A DNA stretch of 64,000 nucleotides from Promethearchaeota archaeon (GCA_048938295.1 JBHLMI010000002.1:7279-71278), one strand, 5' to 3'; shown: positions 1 to 8,767, counted from the first letter of the stretch. Program-made: numbers and translations. The notes: a model not told the origin generated them from the letters alone.

Positions 1-1922
1 TGTGGATCATCGATTACGATATTTGTGACCCTGAATTTACCTCGATAATATTCGACTAAGGCAGGAACCAGAAGGAGATTGGGATTTGCTTTTTGTGGCT
101 GTTCAACATCTTCTCGGAATAAGAGGACTTTTTCCAGATCGGAGAGAACCCATTTTGGATGGGAAATTTCCACCTGCCAATACTCGATTCCTAACTCAGT
201 GACTTCTGAGAAGGTTACACCTATGGTGGTTGAACCTCCACCGACTTGAGTCATGACTAACTGGAAGAGAGGTCGAAAGATTTGTGTAACATACTCATTC
301 ACCAAAACGAATGCCTTACTCCCGGGAAGGGAAAGTGAGATTTGACTAACGGATTCGGGGAAGAGTGTGTGTAATTCATTGATGATTTGAGTAATCACAG
401 ACCCCAAATCGGTTCGGCTAAACTCAGGTAATGCCTGAATATCGACGAGCCGCAGCAATTGGACGCTTTGGAGAATATTTTGAATTTTGTTTATTTCGGA
501 ATGTATCAGGTTCAGGACCTCCAATCGTTCCTCTGGATTGGATGTGCTCTGACCAACTTCGCTGAGGCTTAGAATGGATTGCAGCCCACTTGTGATCGAG
601 TTATTGAGAATGCCCAGATAATAGTCAAGTTTGACTAACTGGGATTTAGAAGGAGCTTGAGGACGCCTTTCAATAACTGTGAATCGGCGTAGCTCTGTAC
701 GTACACGACTTAATACATTAAGGATGTTTGTGAAATTATCTGAAATCCCCTGAAGTTCCGTGAAAACCAAACCAGCCGGCTCCTGGTATGAAATCAATCC
801 TGGCTCCGTGACCGCACTGGTTTCTATTTCAAGCTGTTCTAGAGGCTGATAAATCAACCGAGCAAAGAAGTACCCAATTCCTCCAACTATTAGTCCAACT
901 ATTACGAATCCAATGAGTAACCCGATGCCAATGCTTTGCAACGCGAACATGGCATCCATGGGGCTTAAAAAAACCAAAAGCACATGACTAGTCAAAGAAA
1001 CCGTTATAGTGGCGATGAGTGTCATCACCACGAGCAAAGAAAGGAGTAAGAGAACCCGAGTGATATCTTCGTATTTCACAGACATGGGACGAATGGTGGC
1101 CATGTTCTCGAGAGTCTTTCCAAAAATAGTCAATACTGAAATGAGAAAGAAAAAGATGGCGAAGAGTGTGACCGAATCCGATAGCGACCCGGCATAATAG
1201 AAGACTGAAACTGCTTGCCAGCTCATGGCATACTGGTAAGCAAAGGCGGTATAGCCAAGGATGAGGAAAAGACTAGAAACCACTAGCATCAAGCGGCTGA
1301 ATCGGCTAATGACCTCTTGTGATGGATCCGTGTTGAAGTAAAAAGCCCAAGCAAAGATGGCAGTAAAGAAACCAAGAAGGATTCGCACGCCTGTTCCAAT
1401 AGCTGGAAGGATTGGCGGTTCGAAGATGAGATTCATCTGATAAGTCGACAAGATGCACGCTGCAAAGAAGAAGGTGATTAGTAGGTAGCCGGTGATTTGC
1501 TGTTTGGACCGCCTACGCTGTTCAACTGAAACCACGATGAATCCCACAAGTAGGATCAGATTTGCTATGATAGTGATATAGGCCGAGACGTTTGGGTACA
1601 TGATTGGAAAGCCAAAAAAGACGGTTTCAATTAGAAGCCAATAATGTGCCAGGGCACCCAAGAAACTCGCCCCGGCTACAATAAAGACCAATCGTCTAGC
1701 AGCCTGATTATGAAATCCTCGAAGAGCCAAGCATACTCCAAAAATCGTCAAGAATACCATGATGTAGGCATTGATGAGATAGACCCCAGCAATTTGGGGT
1801 GTAAAGAATCCAATGACAAGTGGAAGCACCGCGAGAAGGAATGCAATTGGTGTTGCAATCGCTACGAGTTTTTGGTTATAGCTTCGAAACCAGCGACTGC
1901 CTTGAAGCTTTTCTAACACCAC
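1..1922 (-). CDS. Polytopic membrane protein with cytoplasmic C-terminal domain (putative sensor or histidine-kinase-like), partial; runs off the window start
   Basis: Reverse-complement reading of 1-1970 gives an uninterrupted frame that is not in the ORF track because it has no stop inside the window. It encodes at least 10 hydrophobic helices followed by a soluble region (..LNLIHSEINKIQNILQSVQLLRLVD..). Candidate starts are GTG at 1922 or 1919, or TTG at 1946; a TAG lies in frame at 1971-1973. The + strand ORFs 1009-1197 and 1644-1916 are antisense shadows of this frame. Confidence 0.6.
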   Translation of the reverse strand, partial: MVLEKLQGSRWFRSYNQKLVAIATPIAFLLAVLPLVIGFFTPQIAGVYLINAYIMVFLTIFGVCLALRGFHNQAARRLVFIVAGASFLGALAHYWLLIETVFFGFPIMYPNVSAYITIIANLILLVGFIVVSVEQRRRSKQQITGYLLITFFFAACILSTYQMNLIFEPPILPAIGTGVRILLGFFTAIFAWAFYFNTDPSQEVISRFSRLMLVVSSLFLILGYTAFAYQYAMSWQAVSVFYYAGSLSDSVTLFAIFFFLISVLTIFGKTLENMATIRPMSVKYEDITRVLLLLSLLVVMTLIATITVSLTSHVLLVFLSPMDAMFALQSIGIGLLIGFVIVGLIVGGIGYFFARLIYQPLEQLEIETSAVTEPGLISYQEPAGLVFTELQGISDNFTNILNVLSRVRTELRRFTVIERRPQAPSKSQLVKLDYYLGILNNSITSGLQSILSLSEVGQSTSNPEERLEVLNLIHSEINKIQNILQSVQLLRLVDIQALPEFSRTDLGSVITQIINELHTLFPESVSQISLSLPGSKAFVLVNEYVTQIFRPLFQLVMTQVGGGSTTIGVTFSEVTELGIEYWQVEISHPKWVLSDLEKVLLFREDVEQPQKANPNLLLVPALVEYYRGKFRVTNIVIDDP

Positions 1923-2043: not shown

Positions 2044-3252
2044 CTAGTTTTCTGTAGGATTTAGGGAACAGACTTCCAAGAGAGTTTGCTGGAACTTGTC
2101 TAAGGTTTGCTGGAAGTCATCACGGACTTCAAGGTATAAATGATTGCGTTGCAGTTCCATGGTGTACAAAATTTGGACTAACTCACTTTGAAGAAAATTA
2201 GCAATTTCCCGATAAGCATCGACTAGAGTAAGCATCTGTTGGGAATATGCGCTATACTCTAAGAATAAGGAATACGCCTGCGAAACGCCTAGGAGCATAC
2301 CCTGACAATCCCGGATGTGCGATTCATAAGTCTTCAAGGACGCTCCCTGACGTATCCTGTCCCGCATCTCTAGTAATTCTAGATGCGAGCCTTCAAAGAT
2401 GCTCGAAAATAATGTGGTGTGATGGCGTTCATAGATCCACCGGGTGCGATTCGAAAGGCTGACATGCTCTTTAAAGAGTTCGTGGACAGCCTTGAAGGAA
2501 GTAATCTTTTGGTCAAATTCTTCCAGTTCTGCTGTACCAAAATATCCTGCTGACTCGGTAAGAATGAATGCAGGATGGTTCTGTGCATCCGTGACAAAGA
2601 ACTCGACCGCTTCCACTATGTGGTTTACCTTTTTGTTCAAATCTTCATTAGCTAATGCTGTTTCCACTTTTGCATATCCATCTAGTCGTAGCTGTATCGA
2701 TTCATCTGATGTTGCATACTGGAGTACATCACAAAAACGTTGCATGCTTTCACTGTAGGTTTGCTCCACGGCTTCCATCAGTTTTGGCAGGTAGTCAGCT
2801 AATCGCTTGATATTGCGTTCTACAGCTTGAAATTCATCGAGAAACTGGCGAAGAAACCAATCTACACCCTTTTGATCTAAATCATTGATCTGAATCTTTA
2901 CCCGTGGGTCACTAGATGCACGAACCATTTCAGCGAACATGCGGTGGTCAGTTATTCCGATAGATGCAAAGAGCGTTTCCATACTTCGACGAACGCTCCG
3001 ATAATAAGCATAATAAATTAATAAATTATCGACATATTCGTCAATGTATCCGATTAATGCGTTTGTATCTACTAAATGATGTTTGAGCTCAGGAGATTTT
3101 TCCTGAAAATACCGGATGAGCCGTTGATTGGCGTGTTCTTCAATTACTCTGGTTCGTTCATCATACTTCTCACTTAGGGTCAGATATTGCTCGAGGAGTT
3201 CCCAGATTAGTGCGGGTGTTTTAATTCCTGAATCTGAAGCATTTTCATTCAT
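2044..3252 (-). CDS. Hypothetical all-helical protein, first of the Rab-like GTPase neighbourhood
   Basis: 402 aa ORF with no recognisable catalytic motif and predicted to be all alpha-helical. It ends 37 nt upstream of the GTPase gene on the same strand. Confidence 0.6.
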   Translation of the reverse strand: MNENASDSGIKTPALIWELLEQYLTLSEKYDERTRVIEEHANQRLIRYFQEKSPELKHHLVDTNALIGYIDEYVDNLLIYYAYYRSVRRSMETLFASIGITDHRMFAEMVRASSDPRVKIQINDLDQKGVDWFLRQFLDEFQAVERNIKRLADYLPKLMEAVEQTYSESMQRFCDVLQYATSDESIQLRLDGYAKVETALANEDLNKKVNHIVEAVEFFVTDAQNHPAFILTESAGYFGTAELEEFDQKITSFKAVHELFKEHVSLSNRTRWIYERHHTTLFSSIFEGSHLELLEMRDRIRQGASLKTYESHIRDCQGMLLGVSQAYSLFLEYSAYSQQMLTLVDAYREIANFLQSELVQILYTMELQRNHLYLEVRDDFQQTLDKFQQTLLEVCSLNPTEN

Positions 3253-3289
3253 CAGGCTTCGACCTGGGCGTTAATGACATATGTTCCTG

Positions 3290-3838
3290 CTATTCCTTTG
3301 ACCCTTCTTTGGCAAGTTCATTAGAAAGAATAAGTTCTGCAAGCTTGTGAAAGACCTCATTGACGCCGTAATCAGTTTTCGCACTGGTTTCAAAATATTG
3401 CATTCCTTTTTGAGATGCATAAACACGCAGTTCATCTGTAGTAATGACCCTGGACTCGAGCAGGTCAATTTTATTCCCTACCAAGACGATTGGCACATCT
3501 GGACCTGAAAACTTGTGAATTTGTTCTAGCCATTTATCAACATTAACAAAGCTTTGTCGCACGGTGATGTCAAAGACCAAAAGGGCTCCTCTCGCACCTC
3601 GGTAGTAGATGGGCCTAACGCCTGCGTACCGCTCTTGTCCTGCTGTATCCCATGCTTGGAGCTTAACAATATAGTTGTTTAGGGGTAGGGATTTAACAAT
3701 GAAATCAACGCCGAGAGTTGAAATGTAGCCATCGGTAAATGTTCCATAAGCGAACCGTGTCGTGAGACTGGTTTTACCGACTTCAGCGTCACCAACGAGT
3801 ACTACTTTGAATAGATAATCAAATGCATCGTGTGACAT
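3290..3838 (-). CDS. Rab-family-like small GTPase (eukaryotic signature protein type)
   Basis: G1 GDAEVGKTS. Switch I YISTLGVDF (Rab TIGVDF-type). G3 WDTAGQERY. G4 GNKIDL (NKxD). G5 ETSAK. There are no C-terminal prenylation cysteines. Confidence 0.9.
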   Translation of the reverse strand: MSHDAFDYLFKVVLVGDAEVGKTSLTTRFAYGTFTDGYISTLGVDFIVKSLPLNNYIVKLQAWDTAGQERYAGVRPIYYRGARGALLVFDITVRQSFVNVDKWLEQIHKFSGPDVPIVLVGNKIDLLESRVITTDELRVYASQKGMQYFETSAKTDYGVNEVFHKLAELILSNELAKEGSKE

Positions 3839-3954
3839 GGGCTGGTCCCGGCAGCAGGTTTTTCTACTTCTAATTCAGTGGAAGTGTCACTTAAAGATAT
3901 GTGTCTCTAAGCAGTTTAGGTGGATTCTTGCAAAATTCTGTTTGAAAAGAATCA

Positions 3955-5115
3955 TTAGGGAGGTAGGTACTCATATCCACGGTACCCTTTACGTCGCTGT
4001 ATTTTTTGCATGTCATATAATTTTTTGAGCTCATTGGACGCAGTGCCTTTCGTGATGCCAATTTCTTCAGCTACGACTGCTGATGTGACTCGTTTCAGTT
4101 CTTTTGTTATGGTTATAATTTCCCGTTGAGTGGCGGTGAGTTCATCGAACTCTTCGAACCAAATCTCGTCTTCCTCTTCTGGACTCGTTTCAATAAATCG
4201 TGTCTGATCTATAGTACTGGGTGCTAGCGTGGTAACCGGTGGTGGACTGGGTCGCTGTTTGATGACTTGTTGCACAAATTCCCGCGTGATGCGGTCTCCG
4301 GCAGGTGTATCGTCTTGAAAGGCTAGAGAGATTATATTTTCACAGAATCGTAAAGTACTGCGTGGAAAACCACGAGTATGGAGATGAATTTCTTCAATAG
4401 CCTCAGCGTTGAAGGGCGTCAGTCCTTTTCCACCAAAATGCTGGATGCGTTCGCGGATGAGCTGCTCTGTTTCTTTGGCTGTTAGGATTTCGATGCCTTC
4501 AGGACCTTCGGTCTCTAAGGCGAATTCTAATGTGACTCGTTCCGCTATCGGTGGAAAGATACTTGTTAGAGCTCTAGAGAATCCAGTTAGGCCAGCCATG
4601 AATACTACAACGGCAGGTAAATCGCTCAGAACCCGTAACCATCGGACGGTTTTCCGCTTCTCCGTTTCGATGGTCTCTGAATCGTCATGTGTCAATGCAA
4701 GTGACTGACTATCATCAATTAGCAGGACGATCCGTTGGTTACTTTGTTGGTGGAACTCATGAACCTTAGCTGCCATTGCATCGACGAGCGTGGGAACGAT
4801 TTTATTTTTTGCCATGAAGTGGTGATTCATCAGTGAAATCAATGCGTTGCTTAATATCGATGAGTTCAAGGGTTCAGAAATGAGAAGAGGAATCATACCC
4901 TTGGATTTCGCCAGAGAATCATTTAACCACCGCAGTATGTGGGTTTTCCCGGTTCCACGGCCTCCTTCGATGAGAATGATGTTGCCGGTTCGCAGTTGAA
5001 TTGTCAAGGGAGTGAGTAATCGTTTTTGCCCAGCGAAGACTTCGGGCAGAACATCAATACGAAATGGAAAATCCGACCAGCCTAGACTCTTCAATCGCTC
5101 GTCGAAAGCGAACAT
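3955..5115 (-). CDS. AAA+ ATPase with C-terminal winged-helix domain (Orc1/Cdc6-like or archaeal-ATPase PF01637-like)
   Basis: Walker A IEGGRGTGKTHIL. Walker B VLLIDDSQ. A helical lid and a C-terminal wHTH-like segment (..ITKELKRVTSAVVAEEIGITKGTASNELKKLYDMQKI..). Confidence 0.6.
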   Translation of the reverse strand: MFAFDERLKSLGWSDFPFRIDVLPEVFAGQKRLLTPLTIQLRTGNIILIEGGRGTGKTHILRWLNDSLAKSKGMIPLLISEPLNSSILSNALISLMNHHFMAKNKIVPTLVDAMAAKVHEFHQQSNQRIVLLIDDSQSLALTHDDSETIETEKRKTVRWLRVLSDLPAVVVFMAGLTGFSRALTSIFPPIAERVTLEFALETEGPEGIEILTAKETEQLIRERIQHFGGKGLTPFNAEAIEEIHLHTRGFPRSTLRFCENIISLAFQDDTPAGDRITREFVQQVIKQRPSPPPVTTLAPSTIDQTRFIETSPEEEDEIWFEEFDELTATQREIITITKELKRVTSAVVAEEIGITKGTASNELKKLYDMQKIQRRKGYRGYEYLPP

Positions 5116-5189
5116 CTTTCATCACCTGTAGTGGAAGGTTTTTTTCATTCTGATTGTTTGTTTACACGCTTCTCCCAGATACTTTTCAG

Positions 5190-5471
5190 CTATGCATCAG
5201 ATGAGACACCGTCACCCATTCGGCCCAAGAAATTGTTGTAGGCAAAGGGACAGACGACTTCGATGCCACCAGTAGGATCAAAGATAACCATCTCCTTTCC
5301 GATAGGGCAGAAGAGAGCACAGTAGCCACCATCTACCAGGTGTCCATTACGTTGACACTCGAAGGTCCTAGCAGTGGGGGTAATTAGTTCCAGGACTGTG
5401 GTCGAATCAAATTGTGTAACTGCTTCTTGGAGTCGTAATTTGGGTTGAAGCGCTTTGGCTTTATCACTCAC
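5190..5471 (-). CDS. Small four-cysteine protein of unknown function
   Basis: 93 aa with Cys at C39, C51 (..DGGYCALFCPIG..), C55 and C74 (..VVCPF..). Its start overlaps the stop of the upstream 67-aa ORF by 4 nt. Confidence 0.45.
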   Translation of the reverse strand: MSDKAKALQPKLRLQEAVTQFDSTTVLELITPTARTFECQRNGHLVDGGYCALFCPIGKEMVIFDPTGGIEVVCPFAYNNFLGRMGDGVSSDA

Positions 5472-5671
5472 GCATTCCTCACTCCTCTATTTCGTTTGGC
5501 CAGTGATTCATCTTCGCGTAGTTGTGCAATCGTTCGAGCAATCCGAACACGCAGCGTCGCCGTCACCAAAGGCATTGCCTCCTTGAGCTGCTCCTCTATG
5601 CTGGGAGCTTGGAGACGGGCCATCGCGTCCGGATGAGCTCTCCCAGACGCTGACGCTTTTTCGGTTGCCAT
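5468..5671 (-). CDS. Small hypothetical protein, possibly ribbon-helix-helix-like
   Basis: 67 aa ORF translationally coupled to the 93-aa ORF. The segment ..MPLVTATLRVRIARTIAQLRED.. could form an RHH-like strand plus helix. Confidence 0.35.
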   Translation of the reverse strand: MATEKASASGRAHPDAMARLQAPSIEEQLKEAMPLVTATLRVRIARTIAQLREDESLAKRNRGVRNA

Positions 5672-6018
5672 CGCTCACGTTACCTCATTGAGTTTCATTG
5701 ATAGTCATTCATCTTCATTTCACCGCATATAAAGCTTCGCATGTTTTCTCCACGTCGTCTATGCGGTTTAGAAAAGCACATAATGAAGATCAGGAAGGAA
5801 AATTTCTGCTCCAGTACAAATAGGACATAGAAGAGAATTCCATAAAAAAGCCTTGAAACGGTTATTTTTTGAAAAATAAAATTAAGTCGGTCATTATATA
5901 ATCGAAATGAACATTAAAACGCCCAGAATAGTAGCTGTTTACTGGCGCGTCTTGGCTTCGATCTCGTTAGTGAAAGACAATGCGCGCCATTCCAGTTCGA
6001 TTATAAAATTCCGAAGGC

Positions 6019-7068
6019 TCAGTCATTTTCGCCTTCAGGAATTGTTTCCATATCAGGTTCTGTTGGATGTGCAAGAATGGATTCCTGAGAGAGATAAGTG
6101 AGAAGACGGAACCGTTCAGAGTCGAGGTGAAGGAGGATTCGTAGGTGTTCCAGGGTGAAATGCGGGGCACTTCGACGGAAGTCAAGGAAATTGGTTAATT
6201 GGGCGCGGAGGGTATCCAGCTGAAGCTCAAGCAGCTTAGCTTGGAGTGCGGGATCATCTTTGGCTAACTCTAAGGCTTGTTTTGCTAAGTCCATTCCTGG
6301 TTGGTTGAAGGGTGCGATGAAAACGGGTGATTTCTTTGTGAGATTTACGAACAGGTAGTGTTCAAGGTTTTCAGGGGTGGTAAGGCTGCGGTAGACCTTT
6401 TCGGAAACACCGAGAAGTGTGGGACGTTTACGTCGTTGATCTATCCGGCTTTCAAGAATCCCCTGAGCAGTCTCAAGATCCGTGATTCCTGGCATGTTAG
6501 GAACAGTAAATGGGAGCACGTTATCGATGGCTTCGCTGAGTTCTTCGAATTTCTTTTTCTTGGCTCCGGTAATGATGATGGCGTTTCCTACGAGGATATT
6601 GAGGAGCACTATGTCTAGTGTGTCTTCGAATACCTCAAGAATGTATTCAGTGGATGAAATCCGGCGTTGGGCGACTTGGGAGCGCTCGTTATGGGCGATG
6701 AGGGCTTCATTAATGATCGGTAGGAAACTTTGGAAGGGTTTCACATCTCCATTCCATTTTTTGATTAGCGATTCATATTGAGCATAGAAGAGGACGTTCA
6801 GGCTGTGTAGTACGGCTTGAACTTCTAGTTCGTCGGCGTTTCCATCAGCGAGACCCACAGTGATTAGCGGGTCATAGACATCATAGTGGAAGCGGTATTC
6901 ACCAGCGCCGATGGTGGAAATTTCTTCTGAGATAGCTTCATGGCCAAATTCACGGATTGCAGTGAGGAGCCCTGTGAGAAGTGTTTGTTCTAGCTTCACC
7001 ACAGGTGAGGTGTGGGAGACAAGGGTTTCGCCGGATCCTAGGAAAATGAATACCGAGTGCATTGTCAT
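6019..7068 (-). CDS. Longin-like domain protein with uncharacterised C-terminal region
   Basis: The N-terminal ~110 aa show a beta-beta-alpha-beta-beta-alpha pattern (SVFIFL / TLVSHT / KLEQTLLTGLLTAIREFG / EISTIGAGEYRFHYDVY / LITVGLADGN / helix), typical of the longin (roadblock-related) fold. The remainder is mixed alpha/beta with no motif I recognise. Confidence 0.5.
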   Translation of the reverse strand: MTMHSVFIFLGSGETLVSHTSPVVKLEQTLLTGLLTAIREFGHEAISEEISTIGAGEYRFHYDVYDPLITVGLADGNADELEVQAVLHSLNVLFYAQYESLIKKWNGDVKPFQSFLPIINEALIAHNERSQVAQRRISSTEYILEVFEDTLDIVLLNILVGNAIIITGAKKKKFEELSEAIDNVLPFTVPNMPGITDLETAQGILESRIDQRRKRPTLLGVSEKVYRSLTTPENLEHYLFVNLTKKSPVFIAPFNQPGMDLAKQALELAKDDPALQAKLLELQLDTLRAQLTNFLDFRRSAPHFTLEHLRILLHLDSERFRLLTYLSQESILAHPTEPDMETIPEGEND

Positions 7069-7257
7069 AGAATCTACCGCCCAAATGCCAAGTTCCCTTC
7101 TGTATGCTGGGAGTTTAGCCTTTGTCTGAAGGCAATTAAAGGTTTCTACGATTGGAGAGACGCATTTTCAATACATAAGGGAAATGGTCACTAATCTTAA
7201 ATCAAACATCAGTATGAAACACCACAATAGAGTCATGCAAATTCTGGTGATACAAAA

Positions 7258-8325
7258 ATGTCTGACGAGGTACTTCGCACCACCCTACGAAAGTTATCCG
7301 AAGCGGTTGGTGTCTCGGGTTTTGAAGCTGATGCACGTGATGTCATTCATAAGGAGATAGAATCTCTTGTGGACGAAGTGTGGGTTGATCCTCTGGGGAA
7401 TCTCCTTGCGATTCGTAAGGGTAAACAGGAGAACCCACGCATTTTACTTGATGCACACACAGATGAGATTGGGTTTATGGTTAGCTATATCCATGAGCAA
7501 GGGTTTCTACGATTTACACCAATTGGCGGTTGGGATCCGCGAATTCTGCCTGGTCATCGTGCGATTATTAGACCACTGGGAACTAAGCCTTCAGTTCAGG
7601 TGTTCGGAGTCATTGGGGCAACACCACCTCATCTGACAACCGCGAAACAGCGAGAAACAGTGATAGCCATCGATGACCTCTACGTCGATATTGGCGTATC
7701 TTCTGAAAAAGCCGTTAAAGCAGTGGGTATTCGAGTCGGCACTCCATTGACTATCTGGCAACCCTTCATTGAACTGCCCGATGATTCTGTTTCTGGCAAA
7801 GCCTTCGATGATCGCGTGGGTTGTTTAGTCATCATTGAAGTCTTAAGACGATTAGCGAAAGCCCGAGATCATACAGCTACAATTGCTGTGAATTTCGCAG
7901 TTTGCGAAGAAGTCGGAGCCCGTGGGGCCCAAACGGGAGCTTACACCCTAGCACCTGATGTTGCACTTGCCCTTGAGTGTACATCAGCAGGTGACATGCC
8001 TGGAATTCCAAAACACAAATCCCCCACCGCCTTAGGAAAAGGACCCGCGCTTACCGTCGCAGACCGTACTCTCATCGCTCACCCCAAGGTCCTTGAATCA
8101 TTGGAAAAAATTGCGAATAGTTTGAAGATTCCTTACCAATATAAACAGCCCTTGGGTGGCGGCACCGATGGAGGTCCGATTTCTCAGAGTAAGCAAGGAG
8201 TACCAACGGGTGTGGTTTCTGTACCGTGCCGATACATTCATTCCGCCATTTCCCTACTCCAATTGAGTGACATCAAAGCCACCATTGATTTAGTTCATGG
8301 CTTTACACAAAAATGGAAAAAATAG
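7258..8325 (+). CDS. M42 family metallopeptidase (glutamyl aminopeptidase / FrvX-like)
   Basis: LDAHTDEIGFMV and a downstream Asp/Glu/His metal-ligand pattern typical of M42. Confidence 0.8.
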   Translation: MSDEVLRTTLRKLSEAVGVSGFEADARDVIHKEIESLVDEVWVDPLGNLLAIRKGKQENPRILLDAHTDEIGFMVSYIHEQGFLRFTPIGGWDPRILPGHRAIIRPLGTKPSVQVFGVIGATPPHLTTAKQRETVIAIDDLYVDIGVSSEKAVKAVGIRVGTPLTIWQPFIELPDDSVSGKAFDDRVGCLVIIEVLRRLAKARDHTATIAVNFAVCEEVGARGAQTGAYTLAPDVALALECTSAGDMPGIPKHKSPTALGKGPALTVADRTLIAHPKVLESLEKIANSLKIPYQYKQPLGGGTDGGPISQSKQGVPTGVVSVPCRYIHSAISLLQLSDIKATIDLVHGFTQKWKK

Positions 8326-8767
8326 GAGGTACAATAGGCTGAACATCCCTACTATAGAAGACCTGCTGAGAGGCGAAAATAGCATCTTCTTAGCCACAGC
8401 TGAAGATGATCAACCTCGAGTACGCCCAGTGACACTTGTCGAGAATAATGGAGAACTATATGTCTTAACTGGTACTGCAGATGCGAAAGTTGAACAGATT
8501 AAACAGAATGAAAAGATCGAAGTTGTTCGACTGATTCGCTTCGAGGAAGGGGGAGGATATGTGCGGTTCAGCGGACTTGCGAAGATTATCACAGACAAAA
8601 TCACTCGTAGTCGACTAGCCAAAGAGACGTCGTTTTTTTCCAATTACTTCAAATCTGCCGATGATCTAAAATTTACGCTTCTACACCTAATTCCGAAAAA
8701 GATTGAATACATGAAACCAGGCCAGATGTATCCAGATCCCGTCGAAAAACTTGATTTCACAAGGTAG
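8297..8767 (+). CDS. Pyridoxamine 5'-phosphate oxidase-like FMN-binding split-barrel protein
   Basis: ..RVRPVTLVENNGELYVLTGTADAKVEQIKQNEKIEVV.. matches a PNPOx-like barrel. The ATG at 8297 overlaps the upstream gene by 29 nt, and an AGGAGG lies inside that overlap, so the start is uncertain. Confidence 0.6.
   Translation: MALHKNGKNRRYNRLNIPTIEDLLRGENSIFLATAEDDQPRVRPVTLVENNGELYVLTGTADAKVEQIKQNEKIEVVRLIRFEEGGGYVRFSGLAKIITDKITRSRLAKETSFFSNYFKSADDLKFTLLHLIPKKIEYMKPGQMYPDPVEKLDFTR

Follow-up and report, generated by a model that had tools for sequence, protein, structure and literature searches.

A conserved gene cassette of Hermodarchaeota with a Rab-like GTPase and a candidate longin-DENN regulator

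Results and discussion

A candidate small-GTPase cassette

The stretch of DNA analysed here, hereafter the window, comprises 64,000 nucleotides (nt) from a Promethearchaeota archaeon (GCA_048938295.1 JBHLMI010000002.1:7279-71278) whose lineage is Hermodarchaeota, within the Asgard archaea. Near one end it carries six genes on the minus strand, two of which encode a 349-residue protein with a predicted longin-DENN fold (LD349) and a Rab-like small GTPase of 182 residues (Rab182). We propose, with a probability of about one half, that these genes form a Hermodarchaeota small-GTPase cassette organized in approximately three adjacent transcription units. In this cassette LD349 would be a guanine nucleotide exchange factor (GEF) for Rab182, the helical protein H402 would be an effector, and the ATPase AAA386 would regulate its own expression. 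The genes, in the order in which they are read, are as follows.

7069-7257, intergenic region between LD349 and the divergent M42 peptidase gene
6019-7068, minus strand, LD349, 349 amino acids (aa), candidate regulator (GEF) of a small GTPase
5468-5671, minus strand, S67, 67 aa, small conserved protein
5190-5471, minus strand, C93, 93 aa, cysteine-rich small protein
3955-5115, minus strand, AAA386, 386 aa, ATPase with a winged helix-turn-helix (wHTH) domain
3290-3838, minus strand, Rab182, 182 aa, Rab-like small GTPase
2044-3252, minus strand, H402, 402 aa, all-alpha protein

All six open reading frames (ORFs) are real genes. An earlier note on this DNA had delimited the same six ORFs and the divergent region, and the coordinates match exactly. 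The six-gene set is kept in at least 16 Hermodarchaeota species, and at 90% identity the families of LD349, H402 and AAA386 comprise 39, 33 and 43 clusters, respectively. From LD349 to H402 the gaps are 347, -4, 74, 116 and 37 nt. The short gaps described earlier thus apply to the last three, but not to the 347-nt spacer at 5672-6018. The negative value is a 4-nt overlap (ATGA) of the S67 and C93 ORFs, by which C93 is translationally coupled to S67, as had been suggested for this pair. Both small genes are under purifying selection, since the ratio of nonsynonymous to synonymous substitution rates (dN/dS) is 0.04-0.17 at a synonymous divergence (dS) of 0.3-1.8 (S67 0.08-0.17; C93 0.04-0.09).

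LD349 is predicted to be a longin-DENN protein

The sequence of LD349 gave no significant match in Pfam (E up to 1), NCBIfam, PADLOC or the PDB sequences. An AlphaFold2 model computed with 36 family members has a mean predicted local distance difference test (pLDDT) score of 84 and a predicted template modelling (pTM) score of 0.71, with pLDDT values of 88-96 in the C-terminal two thirds. Four parts can be recognized in the model.

Residues 1-103 (about), longin domain, beta-beta-alpha-beta-beta-beta-alpha
Residues 110-159, linker helix of 50 residues
Residues 163-251, DENN-like alpha/beta core, parallel beta-alpha-beta-alpha-beta
Residues 261-329, helical d-DENN-like tail

A Foldseek search of this model against the PDB placed DENND10 first (E 1.7e-7), followed by the DENND1B chain of the DENND1B-Rab35 complex (E 1.8e-5). 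Both alignments span the whole LD349 chain and outrank every longin-only match; FLCN and SMCR8 are also among the structural matches. Because DENND10 and DENND1B lead over the whole chain, LD349 is very probably, by its predicted fold, a complete longin-DENN module. A DENN module has been described as the succession of longin/uDENN, DENN and d-DENN (Zhang, Iyer, He & Aravind 2012, PMC3521125), and the model has an N-terminal longin, then a central alpha/beta DENN core, and then an all-helical d-DENN. The longin fold had been anticipated for this protein; the structure prediction bears it out and extends it to the full longin-DENN architecture, known from eukaryotic DENN Rab GEFs, from folliculin/SMCR8 and from GAPs of Rag/Arf GTPases.

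The relatives of LD349 point in the same general direction. An exhaustive profile search returned 211 proteins at E up to 0.001, about five of which are full-length relatives, and sequence relationships are traceable for the longin domain only. Among 143 remote relatives that have only the longin domain in common with LD349, Pfam matches were to Fuz_longin_1 in 22 and to Longin in six, and approximately ten of the 143 are fused to Ras, Arf or Roc GTPase domains. In the MON1/FUZ/HPS1 Rab GEFs, Fuz_longin_1 is the first of the longins. By analogy with these and with the DENN proteins, a role of LD349 as a Rab GEF is plausible.

Other remote relatives are fused to TPR, SNAP, TRASH or V4R domains, and in one (P0166) the LD349-type longin is joined to an alpha-alpha toroid domain of the prenyltransferase type (5e-30). 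The latter fusion is curious, since Rab182 has no cysteine for prenylation.

Rab182 and its neighbour H402

Judged by its sequence, Rab182 is a Rab-like GTPase, in agreement with the earlier note, and its gene belongs to the same conserved block as LD349. The Ras profile PF00071 matches it end to end (5.7e-57), and the 60 best PDB matches are all Rab, Ypt or Sec4 proteins, one of them a Thorarchaeota Rab; Rab1a (7e-53) comes first and Rab35 (2e-48) next. The alignment to eukaryotic Rab1a is free of gaps at 51% identity. Motifs G1-G5 are intact (GDAEVGKT, T41, WDTAGQE, NKID and ETSAK), and the catalytic glutamine is present. RabF-like motifs are found as well (LGVDF, KLQAWDTAGQE, YYRGA and LVFDIT), which fit the RabF1, F2, F4 and F5 consensus, with RabF3 diverged to RYAGVR.

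The translation of Rab182 ends in SNELAKEGSKE, with no C-terminal cysteine prenylation motif. Lack of this cysteine is usual in Asgard Rab-like proteins. As there is no cysteine for a lipid anchor, any localization of Rab182 would have to come from its partners.

H402 follows Rab182 at a distance of 17-85 nt in every locus except one. The H402 model is all-helical (pLDDT 86) and consists of several bundles of long helices. Structural searches matched it only to generic four-helix, spectrin-like or BAR-like bundles, and no significant match was obtained in Pfam, NCBIfam, PADLOC or PDB-sequence searches. The suggestion that this protein might be a GEF, a GTPase-activating protein (GAP) or an effector therefore gained nothing from structure prediction, which gave generic helical bundles only. 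H402 is a candidate effector or scaffold of Rab182.

Conservation of the gene order

The order LD349/(S67)/C93/AAA386/Rab182/H402 is found in every Hermodarchaeota locus that is long enough, with the loss of H402 in L014 as the exception, and it holds down to 51% LD349 identity. S67 is not recognizable in the deepest Hermodarchaeota branch. Scans of GTDB genomes and metagenomes with the LD349 profile found Hermodarchaeota-type loci only.

More distant homologs are found in other surroundings. P0038, which is 45% identical to LD349, has three small-GTPase genes around it in otherwise unrelated surroundings. In this arrangement (L002, 8945-16254; also in L003) the homolog lies between two GTPase genes on the one hand and a gene for a 781-aa protein on the other. 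The two GTPases are extended at the N terminus by approximately 120-130 residues, whereas the 781-aa protein is a double GTPase in which a pair of Ras-like domains is fused to SCP2. Next in L002 comes a gene for a 514-aa PD-(D/E)XK-like protein, and a PIN/MazE toxin-antitoxin pair is encoded just upstream.

Spacer, promoters and the AATGA array

The cis elements of the locus are listed below.

Within 7069-7257, TATA-like CTTTAAT, approximately 65 nt upstream of the LD349 ATG
5672-6018, minus strand, LD349/S67 spacer, 347 nt, conserved
5850-6018, minus strand, conserved blocks in the upstream half of the spacer: the GC-rich inverted repeat TGGCGCGC...GCGCGCCA, the palindrome AATGTTCATT, the block AATGACCGAC and ATGGAAT-N3-ATTCCAT
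5726-5740, minus strand, TATA-like box with a transcription factor B recognition element (BRE), GCGAAGCTTTATATG, conserved throughout the alignment, also in the deep branches L004, L022 and L006
5675-5719, minus strand, AATGA array between the TATA box and the S67 ATG, four AATGA and one CGTGA at an exact 10-nt spacing
3886-3896, minus strand, TATA-like box CTTTAAGTGAC, 48 nt upstream of the Rab182 start, unique in the window

The LD349/S67 spacer is 290-425 nt long in every uninterrupted locus and is conserved far beyond the synonymous sites of the adjoining genes, which are themselves near saturation. Downstream of the LD349 stop codon there follow the GC-rich inverted repeat, T-runs, the conserved blocks, some of them invariant in the spacer alignment, and then the next promoter. 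The T-runs are a probable terminator. In the window copy of ATGGAAT-N3-ATTCCAT the arms are separated by TCT, and the upstream blocks have an AATG half-site in common with the repeat array. A noncoding RNA in the 347-nt spacer was considered and rejected, as no Rfam match was found and RNAalifold predicted 11 pairs with zero compensatory changes.

Across Hermodarchaeota loci the array consists of four to five AATGA repeats with 10-nt phasing. A three-repeat AATGA pattern is unique in the 64-kb window (chance expectation 0.03), and 23 of the 33 loci fetched contain it, once in each and always at the S67 promoter (L001, L004, L005, L008-L017, L019-L022, L024 and L027-L031). L006 is the sole locus covering this promoter that lacks a full match, its copy being imperfect. 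The deep branches L004 and L022 retain the array although the S67 ORF has decayed there. The array resembles an operator because it is helically phased between the TATA box and the start codon; it is a candidate operator for an oligomeric DNA-binding protein, for which AAA386, encoded two genes further downstream, would be the obvious candidate.

The box GCGAAGCTTTATATG would be the promoter of an S67-C93-AAA386 unit. Box CTTTAAGTGAC, which is kept in every locus compared, deep branches included, is probably the own promoter of Rab182-H402, and CTTTAAT may serve as that of LD349. Since GCGAAGCTTTATATG and CTTTAAGTGAC precede S67 and Rab182, three transcription units are likely: LD349, S67-C93-AAA386 and Rab182-H402. 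A single transcription unit of six genes is probably not what the locus contains, given the promoter-bearing spacer, the insertions within it and the TATA-like box before Rab182.

One of these insertions, in L016 (9709-11148), is a gene for a 479-aa protein resembling TnpB/IS605-OrfB with a C-terminal CxxC...CxxC, and it lies upstream of the promoter and the repeat array, both of which are intact. In L008 and L015, too, the spacer is interrupted at this site, by insertions of 1.4 kb. Because insertions occur there, LD349 and the remainder of the cluster can be pulled apart.

AAA386 and the two small proteins

In AAA386 a P-loop ATPase domain with Walker A (GGRGTGKT) and Walker B (LLIDD) motifs is joined by an acidic linker to a MarR-like wHTH at the C terminus, with weak MarR/HTH_20 matches at residues 326-376. 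Its best matches are the ExeA-like TIGR03015 (1.7e-13) and AAA_22 (2.4e-7), and the Joint Genome Institute (JGI) name for its orthologs is ExeA-type ATPase. A profile search yielded weak matches to MarR-type regulators and PCH2. A sequence search returned only orthologs of at least 56% identity, and the group is confined to Hermodarchaeota. AAA386 is predicted to be a nucleotide-dependent DNA-binding regulator of the ExeA/AAA_22 type. It had been described as an Orc1/Cdc6-like AAA+ ATPase with wHTH; the ATPase and the wHTH stand, but the Orc1/Cdc6 affiliation gives way to the better matches just named.

C93 has the cysteine pattern C-x11-C-x3-C-x18-C(P), in which C39, C51 and C55 are invariant and C74 is nearly so in the alignment. 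It has no match in Pfam, NCBIfam or the PDB, and a profile search against the PDB was likewise empty. The protein probably binds metal, and the ligand may be zinc or an iron-sulfur cluster. The S67 alignment has an invariant, helical-looking core (IEEQLK..MPLV..R.RIAR.IAQLRE).

Relation to known systems

The combination of a DENN protein with a Rab-like GTPase has been described before. Liu et al. (bioRxiv 10.1101/2020.10.19.343400) predicted an operon "conserved in most Asgard archaea" in which genes for a Rab-like GTPase and a DENN protein accompany that of a LAMTOR1-like Roadblock protein, and described FLCN-like longin-DENN proteins in Heimdall lineages, and proposed a GEF module. The claim that no known module has the present gene combination is overtaken by this Roadblock/Rab-like/DENN operon. 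The likeness lies in a DENN-fold protein near a GTPase that is Rab-like, not Rag-like, and in the folliculin domain order. Here, however, LD349 and Rab182 are encoded on the same strand 2.2 kb apart, with three genes and a promoter-bearing spacer between them. The locus also differs in its AAA-wHTH ATPase and its cysteine-rich 93-aa, 67-aa and 402-aa helical proteins, and the phased-repeat promoter is distinctive. None of the six genes was recognized as Roadblock/LAMTOR-like, and S67, C93, AAA386 and H402 gave no match to Robl_LC7 or longin profiles. The preprint of Liu and colleagues reportedly appeared in Nature in 2021. Pfam does not detect the LD349 family, whose members are annotated as hypothetical, and it is by predicted fold that the family is set beside the DENN proteins of that operon. 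The pairing type is already known in Asgard archaea; new are the LD349 family, as far as Pfam and annotation are concerned, and the extra partners. Our literature searches found no description of the LD349/S67/C93/AAA386/Rab182/H402 combination, and none of an AAA386-type ATPase associated with a Rab-like GTPase.

The eukaryotic DENN Rab GEFs (DENND1A/B-Rab35, DENND10) share with LD349 the order of longin/uDENN, alpha/beta core and helical d-DENN, and the neighbouring Rab182 resembles Rab1 and also Rab35, the GTPase of the DENND1 pair. They differ in that LD349 has no detectable sequence similarity to them, contains a 50-residue linker helix between longin and DENN and has another domain orientation (template modelling (TM) scores 0.30-0.34), and in that the GTPase here lacks a C-terminal cysteine for prenylation. 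The tri-longin Rab GEFs (Mon1-Ccz1, Fuzzy-Inturned, HPS1-HPS4) are set apart by their two further longins, where the second part of LD349 is DENN-like. In comparison with FLCN-FNIP, C9orf72-SMCR8 and GATOR1, LD349 lacks the GP motif, a conserved arginine finger was not recognized in its longin loops, no paralogous partner is encoded next to it, and the GTPase is Rab-like rather than Rag- or Arf-like. The P-loop core of AAA386 is like that of the ExeA/AAA_22 ATPases, with the addition of the C-terminal MarR-like wHTH; it is not found in a secretion-system or PEP-CTERM context.

Proposed mechanism and alternatives

In the cassette as we propose it, LD349 would bind GDP-bound or nucleotide-free Rab182 and bring about nucleotide exchange, as DENND1B does for Rab35. 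Rab182-GTP would then engage H402 as effector or scaffold, and localization of the GTPase would be supplied by its partners. AAA386 may oligomerize on the phased AATGA operator and set the expression of its own unit. The proposal as a whole is supported by the position of P0038 among GTPase genes, the Fuz_longin_1 matches, Rab35 as second-best match, the precedent of Liu et al., the conserved gene order and the AATGA array. The analysis itself establishes the predicted folds, the families, the conserved gene order and the conserved cis elements, whereas the contacts among proteins and with DNA, the sense of regulation (GEF or GAP) and the limits of the transcription units are inferred from these.

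Several observations weigh against the proposal. A differing domain orientation keeps the whole-chain TM-scores of LD349 low (0.30-0.38). The Pfam profiles DENN, uDENN, dDENN and Folliculin are silent on LD349, and Folliculin_C reached only E 0.05 in two of the 36 family members. LD349 is set apart by the 290-425-nt spacer with its T-runs, a separate promoter, a TnpB-type insertion sequence (IS) and two further insertions. No recognizable GTPase-binding fold was found in H402 by structural search, and H402 is missing in L014 (11789-13967), where a gene for a 686-aa M28-peptidase-like membrane protein takes its place directly downstream of the Rab gene. The most distant full-length LD349 homolog, P0117, has no GTPase neighbour, with a Roadblock gene approximately 2 kb away. 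The unrelated flanking genes for an M42 peptidase, a PNPOx protein and a GH35 glycosidase are as syntenic as the cassette itself, so the conserved order is no proof of functional linkage and could be simple lineage synteny. Asgard genomes encode many small GTPases, and the true client of LD349 may be encoded elsewhere. The module suggested in the earlier note thus survives in part: a predicted longin-DENN protein and a Rab are found in one conserved block, though probably not as a single operon, and its conservation, confirmed within Hermodarchaeota, does not suffice as proof of linkage.

It is possible, if doubtful, that the genes are neighbours by descent, with LD349 regulating another small GTPase or having a role unrelated to GTPases, and the Rab182 cassette adjoining it in a frozen gene order. 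The equally syntenic housekeeping flanks, the separate promoters, the long spacer that tolerates IS insertion and the absence of a GTPase neighbour of P0117 would all be consistent with this. So would the report that GTPase genes of MK-D1 are generally outside operons with longin or roadblock genes and that genome layout rarely reveals GTPase-regulator pairs (Tran et al., PMC10933270). Less easily accommodated are the divergent P0038, which is again found among GTPase genes, the eukaryotic precedent of DENN folds matched with GTPases of the Rab1/Rab35 type, and the DENN/Rab-like operons that Liu et al. described across Asgard archaea. Improbable, by comparison, is a Rab-like switch wired to gene expression, instead of or besides membrane traffic, in which signals would pass from LD349 to Rab182/H402 and on to AAA386 on the AATGA operator. 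If true, this would be a prokaryote-style transcriptional output of a eukaryote-style Rab/DENN pair, and it would show a role of such modules before endomembranes. We also think it rather improbable that LD349 is a GAP in the style of folliculin-FNIP, GATOR1 or C9orf72-SMCR8, acting as a homodimer or with a partner through a longin arginine finger. The FLCN-like longin plus DENN architecture and the presence of FLCN and SMCR8 among the structural matches fit such a role, and Asgard FLCN/SMCR8-type longins with GAP motifs were reported in a 2025 study (PMC12290439). According to the same study, longins of the GAP type, as in FLCN, SMCR8 and NPRL2, are recognized by a GP motif. This motif is located before strand 2, at the end of the strand1-strand2 loop, and is absent from the LD349 family alignment, which has the consensus F-L-x-S-G-E-[TN]-L at this position. 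Nor does the alignment contain an invariant arginine in the longin loops: the nearly invariant R39 sits in helix 1, and three members have W or L in place of R59 (strand 4). The cluster also lacks a second, FNIP-like longin-DENN gene.

Two further readings leave the GTPase regulator aside, and both were rejected as very improbable. AAA386 and the repeat-rich spacer could be a replication initiator of the Orc1/Cdc6 type and its origin with ORB-like repeats, unrelated to the GTPase. An AAA+ protein of approximately 390 aa with a C-terminal winged helix and conserved intergenic direct and inverted repeats beside an AT-rich stretch are what such a pair would offer. Against this, the repeats lie exactly between the BRE/TATA box and the start codon, as in an operator, and the GC skew shows no inflection near 5.8 kb. 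The best matches of AAA386 are to AAA_22 and ExeA-like profiles; no Orc1/Cdc6 model is among its 25 best NCBIfam matches, so that any such match would have E >0.029, no Cdc6_C match was found in Pfam or NCBIfam, and the ORC-CDC6-like profile gave only a 24-residue P-loop match (E 7.8e-4). Some prokaryotic conflict systems contain Ras-like GTPases, and the small GTPase together with a STAND-like or AAA ATPase might form an NTPase-based conflict or defence system, for which the weak nSTAND6, NACHT and mad8 P-loop matches could be cited. The PADLOC models match at the P-loop level only, no nuclease, protease or TIR effector domain is present, and the genes are single-copy and vertically conserved among housekeeping genes, unlike variable defence islands.

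Genes flanking the cassette

The gene downstream of H402 had been considered as a possible input to the module.

1-1922, minus strand, membrane protein, running off the window, 671 aa in full

It encodes a multi-pass, sensor-kinase-like and highly divergent protein with no significant Pfam match; homologs at 33% identity have weak HATPase_c matches. A gene for a 118-aa receiver-domain protein abuts it outside the window. The membrane protein gene has its own conserved promoter-like box, and elsewhere 1.7-3.6 kb of other genes separate it from H402. With its own promoter-like box, a response-regulator partner and this distance in other genomes, it is not retained as the input; membrane protein and receiver are probably an independent two-component pair outside the module. 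The intervening genes in L004 and L006 encode radical-SAM and M28-peptidase proteins, and neither kind of gene lies at this position in the window. A membrane-protein locus comparable to window positions 1-1922 is found in L025 (2314-4687). On the other side of the cassette, the plus-strand genes for the M42 peptidase (7258-8325) and a PNPOx-like protein (8297-8767) overlap by 29 nt (8297-8325).

Significance

The locus bears on how Rab-type switches and DENN/longin regulators worked before there were eukaryotic organelles; the literature searched contains no experimentally matched GTPase-regulator pair from Asgard archaea. It provides a candidate for such a pair in compact and conserved form, namely the predicted longin-DENN protein LD349 (349 aa) and Rab182 (182 aa), which is 51% identical to Rab1, and it adds a tightly linked candidate effector, H402, and a sharply defined cis-regulatory array. 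The predicted fold of LD349 suggests that complete DENN modules occur in Asgard families overlooked by profile databases, and current counts of 'eukaryotic signature' proteins may therefore be too low. The locus would be of value mainly because its candidate Rab/DENN pair is tractable, being accessible to work with recombinant proteins, and comes together with a regulatory element that is well delimited.

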